Shown in pieces: positions 1,010-33,884 of a stretch of DNA of 36,121 nucleotides. Every line of letters starts with the position of its first letter. Within the stretch, counting starts at the first letter, position 1. A program made the position numbers and the translations under genes. The DNA lies in IMG/VR virus record IMGVR_UViG_2778261180_000005. One strand, written 5' to 3'. The notes below the pieces were generated by a model. The model worked only from the letters and a program-made list of their open reading frames with translations, was not told where the DNA came from and did no database searches. The DNA is from a virus. Lineage: Duplodnaviria > Heunggongvirae > Uroviricota > Caudoviricetes.

Positions 1010-2689
1010 ATGAAAACTAAACTGTATTCGTATATTCGCTTCTCGTCTATGAAGCAAGCGGATGGTAGTTCTTATGAACGCCAGAAGAGAACAGCCGCAG
1101 AGATAGCCGCAAAATATGATCTTGAGCTAGTTACAAGCTATCAGGATTTTGGTGTATCTGCATTCAAAGGGGCTAACAGTAGAACAGGTGCACTATCTCG
1201 CTTTCTGGATGAGATTGGTCGATCCGTTCCGGTTGGTAGCTGGCTGGTTGTGGAAAACTTAGACCGTATCTCTCGCCAATCCATCATTGAAGCACAAGAG
1301 CTATTTCTCTCGATTATCCGTAGGGGAATAACTATCGTAACTGGCATGGATGGTAAGGTCTATAGCAAGGAATCGGTTAATGCCAATCCTATTGATTTGC
1401 TGTTGAGTGTCATGTTGTTTGCGAGAGCTAACGAGGAAAGTCAGACTAAGCGCAATCGTACTAACTCAAGCGCATTGATTAAGATTAAAGCTCATCAAGA
1501 AAATCCACAAAATCCGGCTGTTGCAATCGAGGAAATTGGAAAGAATATGTGGTGGACTGATACCACATCTGGTTATGTGCTTCCTCATCCGGTCTTCTTC
1601 CCTATTGTTCAGGAAGTTGTGGAATTACGCAGGAATGGACGGTCAACCGCCGAGATACTGGATCACCTTAACGCGACATACACACCACCACCAGCCGCAA
1701 GTCACAAGAGGCATTCAAACTGGTCACGGGCAATGATTGAAAGGTTGTTCCATACCCGCGCTTTGATTGGTATCAAGGAAATCTCTGTAGATGGCGTTAA
1801 GTATGAGTTAAAGGATTATTATCCTCGTGTGCTAGATGACGCTGAGTTTTATCACCTTAAGAAAAGCATTGGTGTTAGAGCATGTAACTATGGAGACAAG
1901 GAAGAAGTTAAACCTATTCCCTTGCTTAGTGGTGTTGGTCTATTGAAATGTGAACATTGCGGTTCCGCTATGGTTAAGGTGAAAGGAACTAACAAACGTC
2001 CTAACCAATATCGTTATTCATGCGATGCAATGCGCTCTAGTCGTATTGCATGTGTGCATACAAACTGGAGTTTTCGAGGTGATCAATTAGAGAAAGCTGT
2101 ATTGCAATTGCTGGCTGATAAAATCTGGATTGCTGAGGATAAGGCTAATCCGGTTCCGGCTTTGAAAGTACAGATTGATGAAATATCACGCAAGATTGAT
2201 AACCTGATTACCCTTTCTGCTATGACAGGAGCAACGAAGGAGCTAGCCGATCAGATTACTACCCTCAATAGCGAGCGTGAAACACTCTACAATCAAATTA
2301 AGATGGCAGAAGAGGAAATGTATTCTGTTGACTCTCAAGGCTGGGAGAAGCTCGCAGAATTTGATTTAGAAGATGTTTACAACGAGGATCGCATTAAGGT
2401 CCGGTTTAAGATTAAGCAAGCTCTAAAACGGATCGGGTGTAGCAGGATTGACAAGTACAAAAACTTGTTTGTACTGGAATACATCGATGGCAAGACCCAG
2501 AGAGTTGTAATAGAAAATTCAAGAGGACCGAGGAAAGGCCGGATCTTCGTTGATTTGAAAACTATCAATGATAGACAGATTCTGGAAAGTAACGGGCTTG
2601 TTTTGCATCCATGTTTAGACATGCTGACAGATAAGAACTGGAAACCAGAAGAGGAAATACCAGGTCCATTACAGGAATTTGGAATTTAA
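1010..2689 (+). CDS. large serine recombinase (integrase-type), 559 aa from ATG 1010
   Basis: N-terminal resolvase-type catalytic domain (YSYIRFSSMKQ...SYERQ). Central recombinase domain. Zn-ribbon CEHCGS...YSCD...IACVH. C-terminal coiled coil. The track start at 995 is a TTG inside the terminator T-run, so ATG 1010 is preferred. Confidence 0.9.
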   Translation: MKTKLYSYIRFSSMKQADGSSYERQKRTAAEIAAKYDLELVTSYQDFGVSAFKGANSRTGALSRFLDEIGRSVPVGSWLVVENLDRISRQSIIEAQELFLSIIRRGITIVTGMDGKVYSKESVNANPIDLLLSVMLFARANEESQTKRNRTNSSALIKIKAHQENPQNPAVAIEEIGKNMWWTDTTSGYVLPHPVFFPIVQEVVELRRNGRSTAEILDHLNATYTPPPAASHKRHSNWSRAMIERLFHTRALIGIKEISVDGVKYELKDYYPRVLDDAEFYHLKKSIGVRACNYGDKEEVKPIPLLSGVGLLKCEHCGSAMVKVKGTNKRPNQYRYSCDAMRSSRIACVHTNWSFRGDQLEKAVLQLLADKIWIAEDKANPVPALKVQIDEISRKIDNLITLSAMTGATKELADQITTLNSERETLYNQIKMAEEEMYSVDSQGWEKLAEFDLEDVYNEDRIKVRFKIKQALKRIGCSRIDKYKNLFVLEYIDGKTQRVVIENSRGPRKGRIFVDLKTINDRQILESNGLVLHPCLDMLTDKNWKPEEEIPGPLQEFGI

Positions 2690-2725
2690 GCGGCCTAAAT
2701 CGACGTATAACGAGCTAAAACAGTT

Positions 2726-2750
2726 AAGGGGTACATTCGTACCCCTTTTG
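2726..2750 (+). terminator. rho-independent terminator (possibly bidirectional)
   Basis: GGGGTAC-ATTC-GTACCCC followed by TTTT. AA upstream pairs with the T-run. Confidence 0.75.
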
Positions 2751-2762
2751 AATTTAATTGCG

Positions 2763-3761
2763 TTAGAGAGCCTCTAAAGGGCTTAAATCGAGTTCTAAGT
2801 TTTCCGGTGTTAAATCAGCTAACGGTGCATTCATCCACTGCGATAAATCTCGTTCTATGTCTTCATCACTAATGTAGTTGTTCAGATTGATTGCGTTGGT
2901 ATCATCAAAATACATTGGCTTAGATGGGTTGGTGTGGATGTATTCATTGATGAATGATTTAACATCTTTCAGCTTGCTAATCGGTAGCGTTTCTGTGAAT
3001 CCGCTATTCATTACCTTACGTGGGATTTTCTTGCCCTGAATATTCTTTTTAATCCCCATTTCTAAATCACCAGCTTTCCATCCAATGTTAAACAAATGTG
3101 AGCATTCAAAGGTGATTTTCTCGCTGGTGTGCTTCTGGTGTTCTCTTACCCGTTGCATCGGATCTTTGCGAGTGGTAATTCCATATTTGAAAAACTTCTC
3201 GCCAACACGAATTAGATAAAAGTGCATAGGGCGCTGTGCAAACTTGTTTCTGATAACCTGTTTTCTACCATTCTGAATTGATTTAAGTACACCCCTAACC
3301 AAAGGGCATGTTAACCCGCCTTGTCTGCGGTTATTGTGTAAATCACCTTTCTTGTGAATCTTTCCGTGGCACTTACAACGAAGAATTAGTTTAGTGTCAA
3401 CACCCTGATAAGGTTCAGCCAGACCTAACACATCCCACCCTATCGGCTTGTAGAACTTGCGAGCGTTTTCTAAGTGTTCTTCTTCGGTAAATCTAAACTT
3501 CTTCTTAGGCGGTGATACTCTATCTTTGCCAGTAAACTGACCAGTTAGAACATGACTAATACATGGCGTTTTAACCTTTCCGTTAACTTCTATGCAAACT
3601 TTGGTGTTCTGGAATGGTTTCTTTACAGGAAGCACAAAACCACTGTATAACCATCCATGCGCTTGACAAACTTTAATGATTCTGGTTTCATATTCGACCG
3701 GAGGGGTCGCACGTTTGCTTTTTGCGGTAAATTCGATATCCTTTGCTAAAGTAGTATTCAT
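2763..3761 (-). CDS. T5orf172/GIY-YIG-superfamily nuclease-like protein (332 aa from ATG 3761)
   Basis: Motif HFYLIRVGEKFFKYGITTRKDPMQRVREH ... SGFTETL. Two N-terminal Cys/His-containing repeat modules. SD GAGGA before ATG 3761. The upstream 47 codons of the track ORF lack an SD. Confidence 0.7.
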   Translation of the reverse strand: MNTTLAKDIEFTAKSKRATPPVEYETRIIKVCQAHGWLYSGFVLPVKKPFQNTKVCIEVNGKVKTPCISHVLTGQFTGKDRVSPPKKKFRFTEEEHLENARKFYKPIGWDVLGLAEPYQGVDTKLILRCKCHGKIHKKGDLHNNRRQGGLTCPLVRGVLKSIQNGRKQVIRNKFAQRPMHFYLIRVGEKFFKYGITTRKDPMQRVREHQKHTSEKITFECSHLFNIGWKAGDLEMGIKKNIQGKKIPRKVMNSGFTETLPISKLKDVKSFINEYIHTNPSKPMYFDDTNAINLNNYISDEDIERDLSQWMNAPLADLTPENLELDLSPLEAL

Positions 3762-3796
3762 ATTAGTGTCCTCGAAAATAATAAGTTCACTACTAT

Positions 3797-4249
3797 TTAT
3801 TGAGAAAAATTTGTTGTAATGGTTGAAGACCACGGGCATGAGTAGTAACCACGACCGCCACCGATCAAGCAAATGGTCGGACGGAAGCCAGTAAGATCGC
3901 AAAATGAATCAGTGTCATGTGCTGGGGAACGATGCTCTGCTTCGTTAGAGAAAATGTTGGCTACCGGAGATTCCACTTTAACTTCCGGTGCTTCTTCAAC
4001 ATCTGACTTAACTTCTTCGACCACTGGTTCAACTGCCGGAGATTCTTCTTTTGTTTCTTCAATGACGATCTCAGGTTCTTTCATTGCTTCAACCAGAGAC
4101 GGATCAACTTCGTCGAATACCACTTTATCATCTGCGGTGTCTGCTGCCAGAATAAGATCGTTAATACTGGTTCCTTCTGCCGGAGTTTCTTCTTCCATTT
4201 CGGAAGCCAGTTTAGTTAATTCGGTTTCTACGAACTCGATCATCAACAT
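3797..4249 (-). CDS. hypothetical highly acidic protein (150 aa)
   Basis: About 30 D/E in the first ~100 residues. Same strand as the 332-aa nuclease-like gene and 35 nt upstream of it. Weak SD. The antisense S/T-rich ORF is judged an artefact. Confidence 0.45.
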   Translation of the reverse strand: MLMIEFVETELTKLASEMEEETPAEGTSINDLILAADTADDKVVFDEVDPSLVEAMKEPEIVIEETKEESPAVEPVVEEVKSDVEEAPEVKVESPVANIFSNEAEHRSPAHDTDSFCDLTGFRPTICLIGGGRGYYSCPWSSTITTNFSQ

Positions 4250-4289
4250 TAAAGGTAATGCCTATAAGATAAATTAAGTGAGGTTTTTT

Positions 4290-4871
4290 ATGATGAATGA
4301 TGTGCGCAAAGCATGTGATATCCCGTTCAATTTTATCCGCACCAAAAATGGCAAAGCGCCATCACATCCAATTGATATGGAAGCAAGGATCGTGACCCGT
4401 ATTGAAAACGAGGGTTTACCCTTGATTTATCACGGATTCAAAGGTGAGTATAAATCAATCAATAGCCGTATTGTGCTAGAGTGTGAAAGCTGCGCAAGAA
4501 TCAGAGATATAACAGCAAAACAATTCTTACATAATCCTACTGTGTGCCCGTGTAATCGTAGCAAATATGACAACAAATATAAAAATGGGCAACCAGTATT
4601 ATATGTTATGCGGTGTGGTGATGTGGGTAAGGTTGGAGTAAGTCACAATGTGTTGACGAGAAAACATAAGCTAAGATGCCAGAATAAGATGAAATTTGAT
4701 ATCATCGAGACTTTCGAATTTCAAGACGAAAAAGACGCATACGCGGCAGAATTGTTTATCAAGAAAAACCTAGTAAAAGGTGATTTTGATATTAAAGAAG
4801 GTGCTACAGAAACGTTTGTTTATAATGAAAAAATGGTCAGAAATATAGCTAACGTCGCCAGCATATTCTAA
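4290..4871 (+). CDS. T5orf172/GIY-YIG-like protein (193 aa from ATG 4290)
   Basis: Motif PVLYVMRCGDVGKVGVSHNVLTRKHKL ... EGATETF. The N-terminal module (EARIVTRIENEG...LECESC...CPCN) is paralogous to the modules of the 332-aa protein. SD GTGAGG. Confidence 0.65.
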   Translation: MMNDVRKACDIPFNFIRTKNGKAPSHPIDMEARIVTRIENEGLPLIYHGFKGEYKSINSRIVLECESCARIRDITAKQFLHNPTVCPCNRSKYDNKYKNGQPVLYVMRCGDVGKVGVSHNVLTRKHKLRCQNKMKFDIIETFEFQDEKDAYAAELFIKKNLVKGDFDIKEGATETFVYNEKMVRNIANVASIF

Positions 4872-4872
4872 C

Positions 4873-4902
4873 AAAAAAGCGCCCACTAGAGGCGCTTTAA
4901 TT
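4873..4902. terminator. bidirectional rho-independent terminator between convergent genes
   Basis: AGCGCC-7nt-GGCGCT stem flanked by an A-run upstream and a T-rich run downstream. Confidence 0.7.
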
Positions 4903-5256
4903 TTATCCATTCCACCGTGATTTTTTTGATCTGGAATCAATATGCGTAAAGGTTTTATATTTTCCTAAGCCGTATTGAGTAGGATATTTCCCATCAAGAT
5001 AAGCATGGACAATATCAGGGGAGACACCCTTGACCACAATGTCAGCCGCACGGCCTCGAACGTGATAGCTGTTGGTTGCCCCGCCTACATTCTTGTTATG
5101 AGCCGGGCAACGGTTGCCACTGTTAATAATCACTGGTTTACCGAAGTGTTCTCGTACATCCTCAAGAATTACCAGTAATTCAGCGTCGATTGTATCATAA
5201 TCACATTTTCCGCATTTACATTTAAATTCCTTGCGAGAAAAATGTTTGCTTAACAT
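4903..5256 (-). CDS. peptidase M15 family cell-wall hydrolase (endolysin candidate)
   Basis: SGNRCPAHNKNVGGATNSYHVRGRAADI ... THIDSR carries the H/D/H zinc ligands of M15-type peptidoglycan peptidases. Last gene of the late operon. SD GGGGG. Confidence 0.85.
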   Translation of the reverse strand: MLSKHFSRKEFKCKCGKCDYDTIDAELLVILEDVREHFGKPVIINSGNRCPAHNKNVGGATNSYHVRGRAADIVVKGVSPDIVHAYLDGKYPTQYGLGKYKTFTHIDSRSKKSRWNG

Positions 5257-5265
5257 ATTACCCCC

Positions 5266-5613
5266 TTAGATCATTTCGAAGATATAACCAATAAAGCGCA
5301 TACCCTTGATATAATAAGGAGCAGTGCCTACACACACCGCGCGTGCATCACCCAGACAGTTAAAGCTATAAGGATTAACCACATCAACTTCTTGCCCTAC
5401 ACGAAAACGATATTTAGGACGTTTAGCCAATGTAGCGACACAAAACACGGTCCCTTTTTCATGATCGCGGATACATTCTTTATATTGTTTATGTTTAACT
5501 CTCTTCGCCTCAAAATCATGTGTCATAGATTCTGGGCTAATGCCATTAATAAAAATACCGGAAAGCTGATCGACCGGATAAGTAGGAAATTCAGTGAAAA
5601 TATTTTTAGCCAT
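5266..5613 (-). CDS. hypothetical protein (115 aa)
   Basis: ORF with SD GGGGG, tightly packed in the operon. No motif recognised. Confidence 0.6.
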   Translation of the reverse strand: MAKNIFTEFPTYPVDQLSGIFINGISPESMTHDFEAKRVKHKQYKECIRDHEKGTVFCVATLAKRPKYRFRVGQEVDVVNPYSFNCLGDARAVCVGTAPYYIKGMRFIGYIFEMI

Positions 5614-16093: not shown

Positions 16094-16147
16094 TATTCTT
16101 TTCCTTCTATTTTAAACAATAGGGCACATACCCGTAATTCTATTTAT

Positions 16148-16450
16148 TTAGCGGTTGCTCAAACGTCTATAACGAAGATGAGCGACCCCCCTATTTGTGC
16201 TAACGGTAATTACCGCCCCTTGCGGTGCAATACAAGAATGGATCTGTCCCCAATCATGCCCCTTATGGCTTCCAGAAACACAAAAACCATGAATAAACAA
16301 TTCAGAGTCACCGCCGCCACCACCGGAAGAATGAGCACAGAATGAAATAGTCCCGAAAGCGTCGGCTGTCCAACCGTTAGGAATATCAAACCATCCTTGA
16401 TTTGCTTTACCCGCCCTATTCCCCAAAGCGCCATCTACCCAAAATGCCAT
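16148..16450 (-). CDS. Gly-rich small protein, paralogue 3 of 3 (100 aa)
   Basis: Shares W..(5-15)..FDIPNGW, a Gly-rich loop and a V(S/T)F/V...(Y/R)(F/Y)(K/R) C-terminus with the two upstream ORFs. Start overlaps the upstream stop (TAATG). Confidence 0.7.
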   Translation of the reverse strand: MAFWVDGALGNRAGKANQGWFDIPNGWTADAFGTISFCAHSSGGGGGDSELFIHGFCVSGSHKGHDWGQIHSCIAPQGAVITVSTNRGVAHLRYRRLSNR

Positions 16451-16755
16451 TAGTGCATTCTCCTGAATTTGAAATAATGCAATCCACCTTTACCCAATGT
16501 AAAGCTAACGGTAGCACCAGCGCCAACTAAAGAACTAGCGCCCCAACTTCCGGCATTACCAGCGTGATGACCTGATTCAATCAATCCATTTACAGCCAAT
16601 TCAGAATCAAGATCACCAGCACCGTTAATGGCTTCCATATGAGCAAAAACAATTCCGCATGAATCAGTGACCCAACCGTTGGGGATATCAAAATATCCAC
16701 CATTAGCCCAAATACTAATAGCGTTTGACATTCTTTGATTTATCCATCCAGCCAT
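16450..16755 (-). CDS. Gly-rich small protein, paralogue 2 of 3 (101 aa)
   Basis: YFDIPNGW ... GATVSFTLGKGGLHYFKF. GGAG SD lies inside the end of paralogue 1. Confidence 0.7.
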   Translation of the reverse strand: MAGWINQRMSNAISIWANGGYFDIPNGWVTDSCGIVFAHMEAINGAGDLDSELAVNGLIESGHHAGNAGSWGASSLVGAGATVSFTLGKGGLHYFKFRRMH

Positions 16756-16757
16756 AA

Positions 16758-17054
16758 TTAAAACTCCATGAATTTAAAATATTCAACACCACCTTCACCC
16801 CCTAAACCAAAGGAGACGGTGCAGCCAGCAGGAACAAACGAATTTATAGTAGATCCCCAATTGGACCCACCACGACGACGAGCAACGGTCAAACCATCTA
16901 CGTTAATATGTGCATCAGACCATCCACCACCAGCATTATGACGCATGACAGCAACGCCAGCGCGAGCAGTACCATAGCCGTTAGGAATATCAAATACATG
17001 CCATTTTAAAGCATCGATTTTAGTATTAATTTCACTACTTACCCAATATCCCAT
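16758..17054 (-). CDS. Gly-rich small protein, paralogue 1 of 3 (98 aa)
   Basis: VFDIPNGY ... GCTVSFGLGGEGGVEYFKF. SD AAGGA. Preceded by hairpin GCGGGGA-GAAA-TCCCCGC (17068-17085). Confidence 0.7.
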   Translation of the reverse strand: MGYWVSSEINTKIDALKWHVFDIPNGYGTARAGVAVMRHNAGGGWSDAHINVDGLTVARRRGGSNWGSTINSFVPAGCTVSFGLGGEGGVEYFKFMEF

Positions 17055-17091
17055 ATAAGAATCCTTAGCGGGGATTTCTCCCCGCTTCCAA

Positions 17092-20000
17092 TTACCCTAA
17101 TTTAGCTTCAATTGCAGCAAGACGTTCACGAAGAAGTTTATTTTCTTCGCTCATTTCTTGGACCGCTTTAATTAAAAGCGCGTTCACTGCGGAGTTTGAA
17201 ATTGTTAAAATTTCTTCTGGGTTATCAAGAGATCCGACATTAGAAGTGCTAACAGCTTCCGGTAAAATTTCTTGTAAATCCTGTGCGATAATACCAATCT
17301 CATGTGCGATGACTTCTCTGTCAGAAAGAGACTTAACTTTATCGTAGGTTTTAACTTTTAGTTTATTTACCTTATCTACCGCATTTTCTTCGTAGTCTTC
17401 AACGTTAATTTTCAGACGACGGTCGGAACGAATATAAACATCGTTACAGTAAACCGACGCACTAGATGTGAAATCACCATTTGCAGCCCATGAATACCAG
17501 CCGCCTTTGTTCATATGCATCATTACGGTAGCTTGACCACCGCCAGCATGAACACCCATTGCCGCAAGATGATCAACACCCCAATGAGTTGCTTTCCAAA
17601 TTGAATATGCTTGGGTATGTGAATCCTGACAATCTAAGAGAATACCAGCAGGACGGTTGCGCCAGTCATCCCATGCACCACCAGAAACCTCACCACGGAT
17701 AAGAGCGTATTCACCATTATATGGAACACGTTCTCCCGCTTTAATCATTGCACCCTGGAAGTGATGACTAAATGAACCCCCATGATTATTTCGTATATGT
17801 AAAATACCATCATCTGTAGCCCAGATAACAGCCTTTTCCGATTCGCTGTCATCTCTAAACCAGATATGGCGTGCACCAGTTGAGTTTTTGATGGTTATTC
17901 CGGTAGGTCCATGCACGGTCAAAGCACCAGCTACATCAAATAAAACGGTGTTATCTGTTCTACGTTCAGTATAGAAGTGATAACCTTTGGAATCGCCGAT
18001 TTCCATTACTGCCGCGCGTCCAACTTCTGAATTTCCCCAATTGTTGATAGAGAATCGTTCAGAGCTATTATTCATCTGATTTAGGTATAATGTACCGTCA
18101 GTGAATGTTTCGCCAAAGAATCTAGTTTTAATGCTATTGGTTCCGGTGCGTTCAAATTCGGCTAAAAATCCTTTTGAGTCACGAAGACTTAAAACGTTAT
18201 TTCGACCTGTATTGCTTGCCCCCCAATGGACGAGTTCCATATAGTCCATAGATTGACGAGAACCAGATTTAAATAAAAGGTTGTCTTCGAGACGAGTGCT
18301 ACCATCAATTCCCAGGTGCAAACAACGAGCGGTTTCAGTACCACCTAAATATAGTCCACCATCATCAAAATTATAGCTGAATGGTCTGCGATTATTCCAA
18401 CTACCAAAAGAATCTTTTAAATTGGTAGTAAGAATATGGAAGCTAGAACCGTCATTGCGTAACATCAAACCATAGTTACCGCCTTTAACAGCCAAACGAG
18501 CATTTTCAGATAATGCAACTTCGCTATTCATTACAATTTTCTGGCCTTTACCACCAGTAATATGTAATTCACCGTCTTCGATCAAATTTATCGAGTTTTG
18601 ACCGTTATCGTTCCACCAAATAAAATCTTTGGTCGTCAAATCACCAAAACCAAACCAGCCATTACGAACATCTTGACCAGTGCGATAATCCATAAAATTA
18701 AAATGGCTTGCTTCGTTTGGTCCTCGACGAATATCAATACCAGCATTAGAACCGGAACCTAAGCCACCATCGATGGTCAATCTACGAATATGCAAACCGG
18801 TTACAGCCGAAAGCAATAATTGTTGGGTTACATCGGTATATCCAGTAGCAAGACGATAATTTTGGTCATCAACACTTTCGTGCCAGATAGTGGCAGGAGC
18901 AGAACTACGGAAGCGACGCAACATCTTTTTAGCATTTGTCGGTTGTTCGTTCATATGCTCAATGTCGTATTGGCCTTGATGGTTTCCAGCAAAATTTAAC
19001 GTTCCACGGTTGCTAAAGTTATTGAACGATGAAATGTTAAGAGCATCAAAAATTTCATCTGCAACAGGTTTTTCACCACCCAGATATTCAGGAGTATCCA
19101 ACAGGTTTAAAGAAACACCACCGGAAGAAACTTGATATTCTGCTAAAACAAATCCTGTATGTGCACCGTAGTAAGCGTAAAGATCGTAATTATCACCATC
19201 GGTTGGAATAGCGCAAAAATGTTGTTCATAATGCCAAATAGTATAATACGCATTGAATACAACACCTTTCGGGCTATTGTTGCCGCATCGAATCACCAAT
19301 TCGATAATATTGGCTTGTCCATTCATCCCGACGTTATAACCGTTACCACCAACCAAACGGATCTTAGCGGTGCGACCGTGTTGCTGTGGCATTGTCAAAG
19401 TGCCTAGTTTAAACCAACCACCCTCGATCCCAAAATTAAGCGTCTTCTGGAACAGTCGGTCAATTTCTGCTTTCGAATATGCGCCAATTTCAGCCGGAGT
19501 AGGTTTATCGCCTTCATGATACATGCGGTGAGAATATGACAAGTTACCCAATTCATCGTAGCCGTATGTTCTTACCGTATGAACCGGATTAGACCCATAA
19601 GTGAACTCAAAGCCACGAGCATGATTAACACCAGATGGATGCGGAACATGCAAGATCATTGCAATATGACCCGCCAGGTCATTCATGCGGAATGCACCAA
19701 AGTAGTCAAGATTACGCGCACTCGGATCATCAAAATAGTTTGCGGTCTTAGACAACAAATAACCATCAGTATAAGTGTTTACGTGTTTTTTGATGTACTT
19801 GCCATCACTCGATCCGTCGGCTGCATCAATACGGCTTTCTAAGCGTGCCAGTTCAGAATCAGTGTAAGACTTGTTATTGTCAACTTTGCTATGAATTGCT
19901 GAATTTTTGGCTTCAACATCACGGGTTAATGCTGCGACGTTATCCGCTGCCTCTTGCTTATTAGCCGCAATCACACCAGTAAGGTTATTGTAGGTGTCAG

Positions 20001-20613
20001 TTAACTGATTTTCCGCATAGACTTTATTTGCTGCGATAGTGCGGTCAGTTTCTGTCTTAATCAGATCAACTTTGTCATTGATTGCTTTGTCATTACTTGC
20101 GATTGTCGCGTCGGTACGGGATTTAATATCATCAACTTTTTTATTGATGCGGGTGTCCAGTTCCTGAGTTGCTACAGCAGCCGCATTTTTATTAGCGTTG
20201 ATGGTATCCGACAATTCAGCTTTAACACCAGCAAGATCGGAAGCAGCTTTATTTTTATTAGCTTCGATTGTCGCGTCGGTTTCGCGTTTAATTACATCAA
20301 CTTTATTGTTAATTTCTGCATGATTTGCTGCGATAGTAGAATCAGTAGTTTGTTTAATTTCATCTACTTTAGCGTGAATATTGCGGTCATTTACTGCAAT
20401 TGTGCTATCCAATTCTTGTTTGTTAGCATCAACTTTAGATTCTAGTGCCGCGTGAGTTTCAGGAGAAACAGAGATTTGAACTACTTCATGATCTCGGTCT
20501 TTGGTAAAAATAACATGGTCTTTAAGGTTGATTGCCACCTCACCGACCTGTAATTGTTCCGGCGTTGGCTTTTTGCCAGAAACATTAGTTCGTTTAAATT
20601 GGATTGATTGCAT
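17092..20613 (-). CDS. long tail fibre with C-terminal intramolecular-chaperone (peptidase S74) domain, 1173 aa
   Basis: Fibre-type N-terminus (IQFKRTNVSGKKPTPEQLQVGEVAINLKD). About 22-aa TDxTIAANxxxINxKVDxIK shaft repeats. KPTPAEIGAYS motif. C-terminus YIRSDRRLKINVEDY...GIIAQDLQEILPEAV is typical of S74 autoproteolytic chaperones (endosialidase, T5 pb1). Confidence 0.9.
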   Translation of the reverse strand: MQSIQFKRTNVSGKKPTPEQLQVGEVAINLKDHVIFTKDRDHEVVQISVSPETHAALESKVDANKQELDSTIAVNDRNIHAKVDEIKQTTDSTIAANHAEINNKVDVIKRETDATIEANKNKAASDLAGVKAELSDTINANKNAAAVATQELDTRINKKVDDIKSRTDATIASNDKAINDKVDLIKTETDRTIAANKVYAENQLTDTYNNLTGVIAANKQEAADNVAALTRDVEAKNSAIHSKVDNNKSYTDSELARLESRIDAADGSSDGKYIKKHVNTYTDGYLLSKTANYFDDPSARNLDYFGAFRMNDLAGHIAMILHVPHPSGVNHARGFEFTYGSNPVHTVRTYGYDELGNLSYSHRMYHEGDKPTPAEIGAYSKAEIDRLFQKTLNFGIEGGWFKLGTLTMPQQHGRTAKIRLVGGNGYNVGMNGQANIIELVIRCGNNSPKGVVFNAYYTIWHYEQHFCAIPTDGDNYDLYAYYGAHTGFVLAEYQVSSGGVSLNLLDTPEYLGGEKPVADEIFDALNISSFNNFSNRGTLNFAGNHQGQYDIEHMNEQPTNAKKMLRRFRSSAPATIWHESVDDQNYRLATGYTDVTQQLLLSAVTGLHIRRLTIDGGLGSGSNAGIDIRRGPNEASHFNFMDYRTGQDVRNGWFGFGDLTTKDFIWWNDNGQNSINLIEDGELHITGGKGQKIVMNSEVALSENARLAVKGGNYGLMLRNDGSSFHILTTNLKDSFGSWNNRRPFSYNFDDGGLYLGGTETARCLHLGIDGSTRLEDNLLFKSGSRQSMDYMELVHWGASNTGRNNVLSLRDSKGFLAEFERTGTNSIKTRFFGETFTDGTLYLNQMNNSSERFSINNWGNSEVGRAAVMEIGDSKGYHFYTERRTDNTVLFDVAGALTVHGPTGITIKNSTGARHIWFRDDSESEKAVIWATDDGILHIRNNHGGSFSHHFQGAMIKAGERVPYNGEYALIRGEVSGGAWDDWRNRPAGILLDCQDSHTQAYSIWKATHWGVDHLAAMGVHAGGGQATVMMHMNKGGWYSWAANGDFTSSASVYCNDVYIRSDRRLKINVEDYEENAVDKVNKLKVKTYDKVKSLSDREVIAHEIGIIAQDLQEILPEAVSTSNVGSLDNPEEILTISNSAVNALLIKAVQEMSEENKLLRERLAAIEAKLG

Positions 20614-22425: not shown

Positions 22426-24405
22426 TCATTCGGAGATGTGAAGAACTTTCAGAGCTTCCGGCTGGGTTACAACATAGTCCAGATCTACCCAGATACGCGG
22501 AACGATAGCGGACTGTGCACGGTAGGTGGTGTCGTCCATATCCAGTTCCAGACCGCCCCACTCACCGATAGTAATACCGGAGAAGTCACCCAGAACGATG
22601 TGATCTGCCGGGATAACACCAGAAGTAACTACATCGTAACCAGCCAGTTTGCCGTTTTCGATGATATAACCGGAAACACCGTTATCTTTCAGGGTAGATT
22701 CCAGTTCAGCAGCAGTTGCACCGCTCATCGCAAACTTGATCGCCTGAGCAGGAACGCCAGCGTCGGTCAGTGCTGCAATTTCTTTCAGGAAGTCTTTGTA
22801 GCTGAAAGCGGCTTTCTTAGTAACACGGCTTGCATCAACCAGTTGTTTAACCAGACCAGCAGGACCGCGCTCATTGTCTTTGTCAGACAGAATCAGTTGT
22901 TCCAGTTTGATGCGAACAGCCTGGTTGATGTGATCAGTGATCAGGGTAGCGATACCCGGAACGGTTTTAATGCTCTGACGGCTGATCGGGTTGCCACCAG
23001 CAAAAGTCTTAGGAGACAGTTTCACGTTTGCAAATTCAGCTTTGCCTTCCGGTGCAGCACCGTTTTCATCAACGAAGCCGAAAGCGTCAACGCTGGATTT
23101 AGTCATTTTTGGAATAGCGGTCGGAGCAGTCAAGCCACTGTAAACAGTCACACCCAGACGACCCAGAACGGATTCCGGCATCAGCATTTCGATGTAGGAT
23201 TCAGTCAGCAGTTTTTCGTCGGTGATAGCAGTCAGGTCAGCTTTGGTGTTACCAGCAGCAGCAGCACGCATAGCAGCAGCAGGAACGAATACAGAGCCAC
23301 CACGAGCAGCACGACCACGCTGCATAGTTGCAGTAGCAGCCATTGCGGAATATTCAGCTTCATGAGCGCCGAGCACGTCGCCATCTACCAGGGAGCGGAT
23401 TACGTTATTAAGATCGAAAGTTTTTTCCATTTTAGAGTCCTTAATTTGTTGTTCGTTGTTACGTTGAGCAGTAGCGATTTTATTTAGTGCCTTAGTGCGG
23501 AATGCTTCCGGCGTCATGTCTTTAATTGCTAATGCGCGTTTCAATTCTTCGTCATCAATATTTAGTTCGCGTGCAATTTCGCGAATTTCTAATTCGTCTT
23601 CTTCGGAACGTTCAGCCACTTCTTCGATTTTTTCTTCTTCAATCGGAGCGGCTTCACGTTCTTCTTTTACTTCTTCTGCTTCCCGAACAGTTGAACTATC
23701 ATCATCAACACTTTCAGGATGTTCAGCGTCTTTTCCGTCTTCGAGATTTTCATCTTCTTTATTCTCTTCAACTTTCGGTTCTTTATTTTCTTCTACCGGA
23801 GTTTCTTCAACCTGAGCGGGTTCTTGTTCTTCTTTGATTTCTTCGATTTGTTCTTTAGTCATATCGCGTTTAGCCTCCAAATTAACTGTGATAGTATTTA
23901 GAGAGCGATTTAAACCGACCGTATCGTCAGCAGGAACTGTCACAAATGAAATTTCAAAGGGTGCCCACTTAGTAACAATCAATTGTCCTTTAGCGTAATC
24001 GATGTGATACTCTTTAATGTCATAGCCGACCGATATTTTTTCCATCGTACCTTCAATGACTTTATTACGAATATCATTAGCCAAAGTCCCATGCTTAGAG
24101 AATTTAACCAGAGCACGGCCTACGTTATCCGCATCGATTCGAGCGTTACAGACAACACCAATGTGATTATCGAAATTATGATTGAACAGCAACGGAGCGT
24201 TATTATTCAGGCGAGACAGATCAACCGCTTCCGGTGTATGTACCAGAATTTCATCTAATACCACCATTTCTTGATTTTGCTCATCCCAGAATTGGCGCTG
24301 GTAAGGCTGGGTACTGGAGAAAGCAATTTCAAATTCGTATTGATCGTTATGCCCTTCGTTAATAACTCCACCGTAACCGTTAAGATCGCGGCGAAATTTA
24401 AGCAT
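22426..24405 (-). CDS. prohead protease / major capsid protein fusion (659 aa)
   Basis: N-terminal ~170 aa are prohead-serine-protease-like (LLFNHNFDNHIGVV). An acidic E/K-rich linker follows. The C-terminal ~350 aa are HK97-fold capsid-like. Codon usage is strongly optimised. Confidence 0.85.
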   Translation of the reverse strand: MLKFRRDLNGYGGVINEGHNDQYEFEIAFSSTQPYQRQFWDEQNQEMVVLDEILVHTPEAVDLSRLNNNAPLLFNHNFDNHIGVVCNARIDADNVGRALVKFSKHGTLANDIRNKVIEGTMEKISVGYDIKEYHIDYAKGQLIVTKWAPFEISFVTVPADDTVGLNRSLNTITVNLEAKRDMTKEQIEEIKEEQEPAQVEETPVEENKEPKVEENKEDENLEDGKDAEHPESVDDDSSTVREAEEVKEEREAAPIEEEKIEEVAERSEEDELEIREIARELNIDDEELKRALAIKDMTPEAFRTKALNKIATAQRNNEQQIKDSKMEKTFDLNNVIRSLVDGDVLGAHEAEYSAMAATATMQRGRAARGGSVFVPAAAMRAAAAGNTKADLTAITDEKLLTESYIEMLMPESVLGRLGVTVYSGLTAPTAIPKMTKSSVDAFGFVDENGAAPEGKAEFANVKLSPKTFAGGNPISRQSIKTVPGIATLITDHINQAVRIKLEQLILSDKDNERGPAGLVKQLVDASRVTKKAAFSYKDFLKEIAALTDAGVPAQAIKFAMSGATAAELESTLKDNGVSGYIIENGKLAGYDVVTSGVIPADHIVLGDFSGITIGEWGGLELDMDDTTYRAQSAIVPRIWVDLDYVVTQPEALKVLHISE

Positions 24406-32942: not shown

Positions 32943-33884
32943 ATGTTATTTTCCGCTAACTTTTTCACTAACGAAGTAACCAACGCTAAAGCAGTTATCA
33001 AATTTGGCACCGAAGCAAACAAGAAGATTCAGCCGAAAGTTGTTGCTCATGTTTCCTTTGCGCAGCAGAAATCCGCTTTCGCTGGCTTTAAAGCACATCG
33101 TGAAGCACTGATCGCGGCTGGCTTTGGTGTTGACGGTAAACTGCCTAACGGCATTCGTAAAGCAATCGACCGCGTTAAACCTGCTAAAGACGTTGCAGTA
33201 GACCACATCGTTACTTTTACCGTTAAGAACTCTTCTGAACTGTTCCACCTGGTTATTGCTGGTGATACTGCTATCGTTTCCGCTCCTAACATGGATTTTC
33301 AGGATACCGCTGATTGCCAGATCACCTTCGGTCGTCGTAAAGAAGTTACCGGAAAAGCTAAACTGAACTTCACTAAATCCGGCAATCCTTACTTTGCTGT
33401 TTTCTTTAACAGCCACGCTACCGAAAAAGAAGTTGTAGAACTGGTTGCTTATGAAGGTGAAGAGAAAGAACGTATTGAATCTTGCGAAGCATTTCTGGAA
33501 CTGGAAGCACAGGTGAATGCTGTTTCTCCGGTTGTTGAAGATCGCTTTGCTGCACTGGAAGCACAGATCGCAGAACTGAAAGCTGCACTGGAAGAAAAAG
33601 ACCAGATTATCGAAGCACAGAAAGCTGAGATTGAAGAACTGAAAGCTAAAGAAGTTGCTCCGGTAGCAGTAGTTGAAAACGCGGCTGATGAGGCCGCAAA
33701 TGATGAAGTAGAAGTGAAAATCGATGTGATGCGTGATCCGATGGCTGCACTGCAATTACTTCGTTCTTTTAAGGGCAAATCTCATTTTTCTAGTGATGTA
33801 GAAGATGAGGAAGAAGAACAGAAACGCAATGCTGCAATGCTTCATGATGAAATGTACGGTACTAACTTTTCTTACTGCCAATAA
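32943..33884 (+). CDS. abundant-expression-type protein of unknown function (313 aa): globular N-domain, coiled coil, acidic C-terminus
   Basis: SD AGGAG. Codon choice is dominated by E. coli high-expression codons (CTG, GAA, AAA, CGT, GGT, GCT). Coiled coil FAALEAQIAELKAALEEKDQIIEAQKAEIEELKAK. Confidence 0.85.
   Translation: MLFSANFFTNEVTNAKAVIKFGTEANKKIQPKVVAHVSFAQQKSAFAGFKAHREALIAAGFGVDGKLPNGIRKAIDRVKPAKDVAVDHIVTFTVKNSSELFHLVIAGDTAIVSAPNMDFQDTADCQITFGRRKEVTGKAKLNFTKSGNPYFAVFFNSHATEKEVVELVAYEGEEKERIESCEAFLELEAQVNAVSPVVEDRFAALEAQIAELKAALEEKDQIIEAQKAEIEELKAKEVAPVAVVENAADEAANDEVEVKIDVMRDPMAALQLLRSFKGKSHFSSDVEDEEEEQKRNAAMLHDEMYGTNFSYCQ

Follow-up and report, generated by a model that had tools for sequence, protein, structure and literature searches.

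Homing endonucleases of the CapR/T5orf172 class have been described in phage ICP1 and in many other phages, with CxxC...CxC as the reported CapR motif (Barth, Dunham & Seed 2023; PMC10448857). In the ICP1 gp165/gp174 class, such modules occur in variable repeats followed by a T5orf172 domain, and the free-standing homing endonuclease genes (HEGs) form "HEG islands" at the borders of high-identity tracts between otherwise unrelated genomes (PMC10448857). We found both traits in a window of 36,121 nucleotides (IMG/VR virus record IMGVR_UViG_2778261180_000005), the whole stretch of DNA analysed here, which represents most of an Escherichia coli prophage of a temperate siphophage; positions are given in window numbering. 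Next to the integrase gene, the segment 2748-4875 is a terminator-bounded accessory cassette of this temperate E. coli siphophage. Within it, two genes for proteins of 332 and 193 amino acids (aa) flank an acidic open reading frame (ORF) that matches the central part of inh, a head-protein gene of virulent RB49-type phages, at 99.5% DNA identity. It is an even call, in our judgement, whether the two HEG-type nuclease genes mark the borders of a tract recurrently exchanged with RB49-type phages and act by cleavage and repair.

The cassette differs from the HEG islands in several respects. It lies in a temperate siphophage prophage beside the integrase, whereas the islands lie in a virulent phage near essential genes. 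The bracketed tract is 415 bp (or uvsW-uvsW.1) and is held in common with a virulent phage of another family. In addition, the prophage genes are long-term residents of one lineage with no empty target site found, and their proteins are at most 35% identical to any described member. What is new here, on the best-supported reading, would be an HEG-bordered exchange module, a kind known in phages, operating between a temperate and a virulent phage. Exchange of genes between virulent and temperate phages is commonly regarded as rare.

Two further systems bear comparison. The T4 seg and mob genes (PMC2988022, PMC2330249) are likewise intergenic, free-standing members of the GIY-YIG superfamily, and co-conversion of their flanks gives a mosaic of identity. 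They differ in their DNA-binding domains, and the exchange proposed here is between a prophage and a superinfecting virulent phage rather than between two co-infecting T-even phages. PLE CapR and ICP1 Odn (PMC8096241, PMC10448857) share with the prophage proteins the CapR zinc finger and T5orf172 nuclease domains, as well as the setting of an integrated mobile element that meets a virulent phage and bears signs of recent DNA exchange. However, PLE CapR matches the N-terminal part of the ICP1 proteins, the part that binds DNA (PMC8096241), whereas both prophage proteins keep the nuclease domain with all family-invariant residues, and the carrier is a full temperate phage rather than a satellite. 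The cassette and its flanks comprise the following features.

1010-2689, plus strand: large serine recombinase (integrase), left flank of the cassette (Pfam Resolvase, Recombinase and Zn_ribbon_recom; PHROG integrase, 9e-57)
2726-2747: bidirectional terminator-like hairpin, left cassette border (terminator score on both strands)
2763-3761, minus strand: gene of the 332-aa protein (two CapR-like modules, T5orf172/GIY-YIG-type domain at about residues 178-280, conserved acidic C-terminal tail)
3778-3806, minus strand: sigma-70-like promoter match upstream of the 332-aa gene (TTCTCA-17-TATTAT, 9/12 matches; weak evidence)
3797-4249, minus strand: 150-aa acidic ORF, by BLASTP and PHROG 1051 a short form of T-even Inh
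3829-4243: 415-bp tract, 99.5% identical to Krischvirus inh (blastn against 50,697 phage records)
4250-4289: divergent 40-bp intergenic spacer holding the ribosome-binding site (RBS) of the 193-aa gene (read from the sequence)
4290-4871, plus strand: gene of the 193-aa protein (one CapR zinc-finger module, CxxC...CxC, and a T5orf172/GIY-YIG-type domain)
4876-4898: bidirectional terminator, right cassette border, common to the 193-aa gene and the endolysin gene (terminator score on both strands)
4903-5256, minus strand: M15 peptidase endolysin, last gene of the late/lysis operon, right flank (Pfam Peptidase_M15_3, 2e-28; PHROG endolysin, 2e-46)

By homology, the acidic ORF is a short form of inh and of T-even origin. 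Krischvirus comprises the RB49-like T4-type coliphages, which are virulent, and the phage kvi was used for residue comparison. When the inh tract was queried by blastn against the 50,697 records (hereafter the phage collection), 59 Krischvirus-type records were matched, the best at 99.5%, and the two DNA differences between 3829-4243 and Krischvirus inh are both synonymous. BLASTP identified 138 of 138 residues with residues 49-186 of kvi Inh, and the ORF matched PHROG 1051, "minor head protein inhibitor of protease" (4e-21). The identity to Krischvirus inh has sharp ends, precisely at Met49 and at W186. The ORF thus consists of Inh residues 49-186 with 2 N-terminal and 10 C-terminal prophage-specific residues, and it is without residues 1-48 and 187-241 of the 241-aa phage protein. 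Precomputed Pfam annotation places PF26098 and PF26097 on the full-length Krischvirus proteins and neither of them on the 150-aa forms. The Krischvirus inh gene has uvsW as its divergent neighbour, a position taken in the window by the 193-aa gene.

Compared with T4-type Inh (PHROG 1051), the prophage form is identical in every residue of the kvi 49-186 core, and the divergent inh/uvsW geometry is reproduced. It differs in lacking both ends and in lying outside the head-gene cluster, in a phage with an unrelated HK97-like head module; neither the full-length Inh architecture nor the head-gene setting beside hoc and uvsW is present. Its RBS is poor. The ORF is indeed as acidic as described in the initial annotation, which was made from the sequence alone (30 D/E and 6 K/R among the first 100 residues; pI 4.05). 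That annotation had taken it for a possible partner, inhibitor or DNA mimic, a proposal now replaced by its identity as Inh residues 49-186 with 99.5% DNA identity to Krischvirus. The "protease inhibitor" role of Inh comes from database annotation and is presumed here; a literature search on T4 Inh biochemistry yielded papers on C1-inhibitor only.

The short form, with the same start residue, recurs in a Proteus prophage (L011), in contig L014 and in the E. coli locus L027 (handles of this kind denote the compared loci), and this start is conserved among prophage copies that are only 50-76% identical. Inh homologues in the phage collection were confined to T4-like phages. The best phage match of the Proteus Inh-like gene is 51%, which gives no support to a recent acquisition from a local T4-like phage, a source that was considered. 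A short Inh-like protein maintained outside T4-like phages raises the question of function for a poorly studied head protein. Separately, additional PHROG matches of the 659-aa major head protein of the prophage (22426-24405, minus strand) are to "major head and protease protein" and "head maturation protease". They point to a gene in which protease and capsid are fused, which bears on any Inh-like action in the head maturation of the prophage itself.

Different prophages match different Krischviruses. Between a prophage Inh-like allele and its nearest Krischvirus, identity is anywhere from 79% to 99.5%, although the prophage backbones differ by only a few percent. The inh of L009 is 97.5% identical to the MIZ6/G5211 allele and only 83% to kvi, and that of L027 reaches at most 79% to any Krischvirus. 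In L010 and P0035, T-even sequence runs on to Inh residue 13, which establishes the direction in these cases as from phage to prophage. The phages themselves vary at the same place. Over 6.3 kb around hoc-inh-uvsW, kvi (L001) and MIZ6 (L015) are at least 93% identical per 60-bp window; the exceptions are the acidic linker of inh (L001 5120-5281; 52-80%), a 65% block near 3080-3139, and windows at 90% and 88%. This linker polymorphism of the Krischviruses is mirrored in the prophage alleles. By allele matching, two or three recent conversions at the least are shown to have happened independently, with different inh alleles of Krischvirus as their source, and the overall pattern is, on these comparisons, one of recent and repeated DNA exchange between a temperate prophage and a virulent Krischvirus. 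RB49-type phages are absent from the carriers of gene 42 (dCMP hydroxymethylase) in Table 4 of Petrov et al. 2010 (PMC2993671), and hence probably have ordinary cytosine DNA able to recombine with host DNA.

The near base-perfect 415-bp tract, the several independent conversions and the uvsW/uvsW.1 block all fall in one terminator-bounded slot with HEG-type borders. In RB49-type phages and natural lysogens, E. coli offers a genetically tractable system for asking whether it is nuclease genes that delimit exchange between phages of different lifestyle, and whether HEG-type nucleases carried by prophages have an action on superinfecting T-even phages. The tail-fibre region is another place in this prophage where exchange with T-even phages has left its mark. 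The distal part of the tail-fibre gene (17092-20613, minus strand, 1173 aa) and the ORFs at 16148-17054 are 80-95% identical in DNA to T4-like gp37 regions; the matches lie within 16132-19750 and include IME340 (95% over 17137-18132) and vB_EcoM_G37-3 (87% over 16132-19527). A megablast search of the window against the phage collection gave no match outside the inh tract and the tail-fibre region, and the prophage family appears to be without a sequenced isolate in that collection.

The second part of the T4-like locus is found in sister prophages, and the cassette as a whole is the counterpart of this locus, in which inh and uvsW-uvsW.1 are divergent. Downstream of inh lies one nuclease gene, and the other lies between inh and the position that uvsW takes in sister alleles. 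The UvsW slot alleles span 3367-4857 in L007, 2772-4277 in L012 and 2480-4276 in L026, and the full-length UvsW of sister prophages is 71-84% identical to that of kvi at the aa level. Where the nuclease gene is present, uvsW is directly downstream of a T5orf172 gene of 188-192 aa, with stop and start overlapping or 2 bp apart. In L026, a UvsW.1 that is 96% aa identical to kvi stands beside a UvsW that is only 71% identical.

Profile searches and structure both support the assignment of the two flanking proteins to the T5orf172/GIY-YIG type with N-terminal CapR zinc fingers, that is, to the homing-endonuclease type, and in this the initial annotation was borne out. Both proteins match PHROG 681, "endonuclease" (332-aa protein, 3e-20; 193-aa protein, 2e-22). 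The 193-aa protein passes the Pfam CapR homology domain (PF21817; 26.0 bits, gathering cut-off 24.2), whereas the 332-aa protein reaches only 16 bits. Relatives 35-55% identical to the 193-aa protein pass the T5orf172 cut-off (L027, 36.1; L014, 27.8; L012, 22.4; L024, 20.7), and the L014 relative also passes MUG113 (25.3) and GIY-YIG (22.6). The Proteus orthologue of the 332-aa protein likewise exceeds the T5orf172 cut-off (20.6). NCBIfam gave no match to the 332-aa, 150-aa or 193-aa protein.

The T5orf172-type core motifs noticed at the outset are invariant in both families: Y182, K192, G194, R204, E234 and E257 in the 332 family, and Y105, K114, G116, R124, E154 and E174 in the 193 family. 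By analogy, the Tyr in strand 1, the K-x-G in strand 2, the Arg in helix 1 and the acidic "TE" make up a putative catalytic core, and the proteins have the GIY-YIG alpha/beta fold expected of T5orf172 members. At the N-terminus, the 193-aa protein has a single CxxC...CxC module in which C65, C68, C86 and C88 are all invariant. The AlphaFold model of the 332-aa protein contains two helix-plus-three-strand modules. Module 2 (CxCH...C) keeps C129, C131, H132 and C152 invariant, and module 1 is without conserved cysteines. Thus one Cys/His-containing module in the smaller protein and two modules in the larger one were correctly recognized, but the first module of the latter has no conserved Cys or His. 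By hhalign, the 332 and 193 families align with 98% probability (E 2.6e-13) and with their CapR modules in register, the 332-aa protein having one extra N-terminal module; by this profile comparison the two families are homologous paralogues.

The closest viral structural relatives of the 332-aa model are multi-zinc-ribbon CapR/T5orf172/GIY-YIG proteins of virulent phages. The top two matches are proteins of the Krischviruses JEP8 and kaaroe, and others come from RaK2, K64-1 and Aeromonas phages. When IMG/VR was scanned with alignments of the 332 and 193 families and of Inh, the only matches were to this prophage family and to two ordinary Krischvirus contigs, and a scan of the GTDB representative genomes gave no match. 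A donor T4-like phage with these nuclease genes beside inh/uvsW was sought and found neither by tblastn of the phage collection nor in IMG/VR or the GTDB representatives. As a separate observation, the 332-aa family ends (2763-2805) in a near-invariant acidic tail, ...(E)DLELDLSPLEAL, which is distinct from the nuclease domain; the model has low confidence from about residue 280. The tail DLELDLSPLEAL may be a docking peptide for a partner protein.

The recombinase-endolysin junction was present in 57 of 5,426 complete E. coli genomes, and the content of the slot varies among them, in agreement with the accessory hotspot beside the integrase that the initial annotation had anticipated. The whole cassette is found in 7 of the 57, the 332-aa gene with a shortened Inh-like ORF in about 11, and a 496-aa UvsW homologue, 80% identical to kvi UvsW, in 16; some of the remaining genomes have an almost empty slot. 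In alleles without the 193-aa gene, the equivalent of window 4139-4814 is gone and the last 57 bp of the gene, which code for family-conserved residues, are kept. What remains in the "empty" alleles is the final 46 bp of the 332-aa gene together with 31-68 bp of the inh tract. These 3' remnants indicate that the gene-less E. coli alleles are deletion derivatives of a window-like arrangement and not empty homing sites. Longer ORFs called by PGAP in shortened alleles of the L003 type are probably annotation artefacts: their first 30 or so codons cross the terminator hairpin, antisense to the 3' end of the 193-aa gene. Decay is seen in many E. coli copies, as deletions, a nonsense mutation in the 332-aa gene of L010 and an IS1 insertion in strain 39EVA.

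Distant relatives show the same layout beside the same kind of recombinase. Their contents are as follows.

Proteus columbae (L011): endolysin, 146-aa Inh-like protein, 325-aa protein
Contig L014: 194-aa protein, 118-aa Inh-like protein, 331-aa protein
Salmonella (L012): 188-aa protein, then UvsW; 331-aa protein
E. coli (L026): 189-aa protein, then UvsW, then UvsW.1; 394-aa protein
E. coli (L027): 198-aa protein, 139-aa Inh-like protein, 330-aa protein
Metagenomic contig L036: 192-aa protein, then a 500-aa ORF at the UvsW position; 416-aa ORF

Relatives with 40-51% identical copies of the 193-aa gene have it in the same place and the same orientation. On this and the deletion remnants, a recent homing insertion of the 193-aa gene, described at first as a plus-strand insert, is rejected. 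The initial annotation had also reasoned that conserved core genes in all relatives would count against an accessory nature; here the position is conserved across genera, yet the cassette is dispensable and often lost in E. coli.

A member of the same family does behave as an insertion. L025 (2836-3873) has a third CapR(x3)/T5orf172-type gene, of 345 aa and with its own upstream hairpin, inserted exactly between the stop of a 115-aa lysis-region gene and the RBS of the endolysin (equivalent to window 5257-5265). It is absent from all other relatives and therefore represents a clean presence/absence insertion, as is typical of a free-standing HEG. By this third paralogue, the CapR/T5orf172 family is, as far as genome comparison tells, mobile.

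The cassette alleles are older than their surroundings. Between the window and L027, synonymous divergence (dS) is 0.16 for the recombinase, compared with 1.7 for the 332-aa gene (ratio of nonsynonymous to synonymous divergence, dN/dS, 0.09) and 0.79 for the Inh-like gene (dN/dS 0.21); the 193-aa proteins are 39% identical. This contrast in dS indicates that the cassette alleles are far older than the backbones carrying them. DNA identity to L027 is 96-97% up to the left terminator (2726-2747), then 60-80%, and about 89% again from 4900. Across comparisons, dN/dS of the Inh-like gene is 0.19-0.29, with dS up to saturation, and in the distant relatives in Proteus and Salmonella the cassette is under purifying selection (dN/dS 0.1-0.3). 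On these estimates, cassette alleles are swapped as units and their proteins are under purifying selection.

If the exchange with RB49-type phages is driven by the nucleases, they would introduce double-strand breaks at specific sites in cognate DNA that is without the nuclease genes. Sibling prophages could be cut in this way and, most plausibly, so could infecting RB49-type phages, in or close to inh/uvsW. Repair by recombination would then copy sequence across the homologous stretch, which would leave the nuclease genes at the borders of a tract repeatedly exchanged with Krischvirus. The mosaic identity that HEG co-conversion leaves in flanking DNA is present: the tract has sharp borders, the alleles match different Krischviruses, and divergence is bounded by the terminators. 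This mosaic is compatible with nuclease-driven conversion and is not proof of it. Precise insertion between conserved flanks is seen only for the 345-aa gene of L025 and not for the window genes.

Several points weigh against nuclease-driven exchange. Presence/absence polymorphism had been suggested as the homing signature, but no clean case was found for the two window genes; every E. coli allele without them has 3' remnants, so gene-less alleles are deletions, and no T-even phage or prophage with an intact empty target site was identified. Although the PHROG 681, CapR and relatives' T5orf172 matches answer the call for a profile search, the window copies themselves fall under the Pfam T5orf172 cut-off (PF10544; 16.8 bits against 20 for the 193-aa protein, no match for the 332-aa protein). 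In tblastn against the phage collection, hits were at most 35% identical and lay elsewhere in the genome, none of them beside inh or uvsW of T4-like phages. Unlike promiscuous HEGs, the full-length 332-aa homologues examined all occur in one prophage family and at one position. Long-term purifying selection is as compatible with a benefit to the prophage as with a selfish element, and the conversions could have arisen by ordinary homologous recombination without a nuclease.

Given this selection, we considered whether the slot serves the prophage instead. UvsW is the late helicase of T4, which unwinds R-loops and ends origin-dependent replication; it reportedly has a role in the control of T4 replication (Dudas & Kreuzer 2001). 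A captured Inh core or UvsW/UvsW.1, mistimed or truncated, might sabotage superinfecting RB49-type phages, while the CapR/T5orf172 proteins would be nucleases against, or CapR-like repressors of, phage DNA, and gene conversion from the attacker would keep the decoy matched to its target. We regard such interference with T-even phages as unlikely, although much of the evidence is in keeping with it: the slot is variable, lies near the integrase and is insulated by terminators; purifying selection acts on all three genes, and the short Inh form has the same start in Proteus, L014 and E. coli; coupling between the T5orf172 gene and uvsW is tight; and the Inh alleles of the prophages follow those of present-day Krischviruses, even in the hypervariable acidic linker. 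There are also T5orf172/CapR precedents as phage-satellite weapons, namely Odn and CapR (PMC10448857, PMC8096241). Against it, PADLOC identified no known defence system, generic helicase similarity of UvsW aside; with PADLOC-DB v2 the window proteins gave only marginal short matches (E about 0.004-0.007), four relatives gave none, and UvsW hit only generic helicase models. Most E. coli carriers have a decaying cassette or have lost it, and in one allele the 332-aa gene has a nonsense mutation. The RBS of the acidic ORF is poor and no T4-late-promoter motif occurs in the cassette; a T4 late promoter (TATAAATA) that would switch it on in T-even infection was looked for and none was found within 2500-5400. 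A dominant-negative action of the Inh fragment is pure conjecture. The fuller version, in which the slot is a replaceable "anti-T-even" cassette of enemy parts, with Inh core or UvsW/UvsW.1 as decoys, nucleases that cut or bind RB49-type genomes, and conversion from each attacker keeping the decoy matched, seems to us rather unlikely. If it were true, escape selection would explain the hypervariable acidic linker of Krischvirus Inh.

The same purifying selection could instead reflect a role in the prophage's own cycle, with the DNA-binding nuclease-like proteins as regulators or recombination directionality factors for the integrase, UvsW as the prophage's own recombination helicase, and the Inh-like protein modulating its own capsid protease. 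The position beside the serine recombinase is kept in E. coli, Salmonella, Proteus and other contigs, and the prophage head protein has protease similarity. Such a role is made less likely by the variation of the slot: complete-looking sister prophages are without the cassette or have different contents (L006, L007, L008, L024), alleles are exchanged independently of the integrase (recombinase 98.9% identical against 39% for the 193-aa protein), and Inh homologues in the phage collection are known only from T4-like phages. We hold it to be quite improbable. Nor is it probable that the middle ORF is a dead T-even fragment, acquired by chance and unexpressed, between two ordinary selfish nuclease genes. 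It is an internal piece of inh without both ends of the T-even protein, its RBS is poor, and many alleles shorten it further; but a dead piece would not have stayed open so long, with the same start in copies 50-76% identical and a dN/dS of 0.19-0.29, and the conservation of the short form makes this explanation less likely. Repeated renewal from functional T-even genes could mimic purifying selection in the E. coli alleles, although renewal is less obvious for the Proteus copy with its best phage match of only 51%.

The remaining observations concern the layout of the locus and its surroundings. The arrangement described in the initial annotation was reproduced: divergent ORFs with a 40-bp gap (4249 to 4290) between the recombinase and the endolysin, and a bidirectional terminator after the 193-aa gene, since the hairpin at 4876-4898 scores on both strands. 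In sister genomes, PGAP calls the recombinase as a 559-aa protein. In the frame of the 332-aa gene, a longer TTG-initiated ORF reaches 3902, and PGAP chooses the 332-aa form in sister genomes. The 193-aa gene has GAGG 8 nt upstream and an alternative 197-aa GTG form from 4278. Promoter-like sites in the window are not enriched over shuffled sequence, whereas the terminator scan gave 11 terminator-like sites against 2.1 expected. The stretch 3757-3808 persists at 90% identity in the UvsW-type allele L007, and the region 4201-4300 is 94% identical in L027 despite the divergence of both flanking genes. Beyond the endolysin, the lysis-region, tail-tip, tape-measure, tail-fibre, head, portal and terminase genes are all on the minus strand. 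Two plus-strand ORFs in this mostly minus-strand genome, 28530-29132 (200 aa) and 32943-33884 (313 aa), have no PHROG match and could be further accessory genes. Finally, the sister prophages are integrated in different host genes: to the left of L003 and L007, just beyond the equivalent of window position 1, lies a remnant of ycdX, and to the left of L005 and L009 a remnant of hicB. The window recombinase is 87-99% identical to the sister recombinases compared (L007, L010, L024, L026, L027), suggesting several attachment-site specificities within the prophage family.

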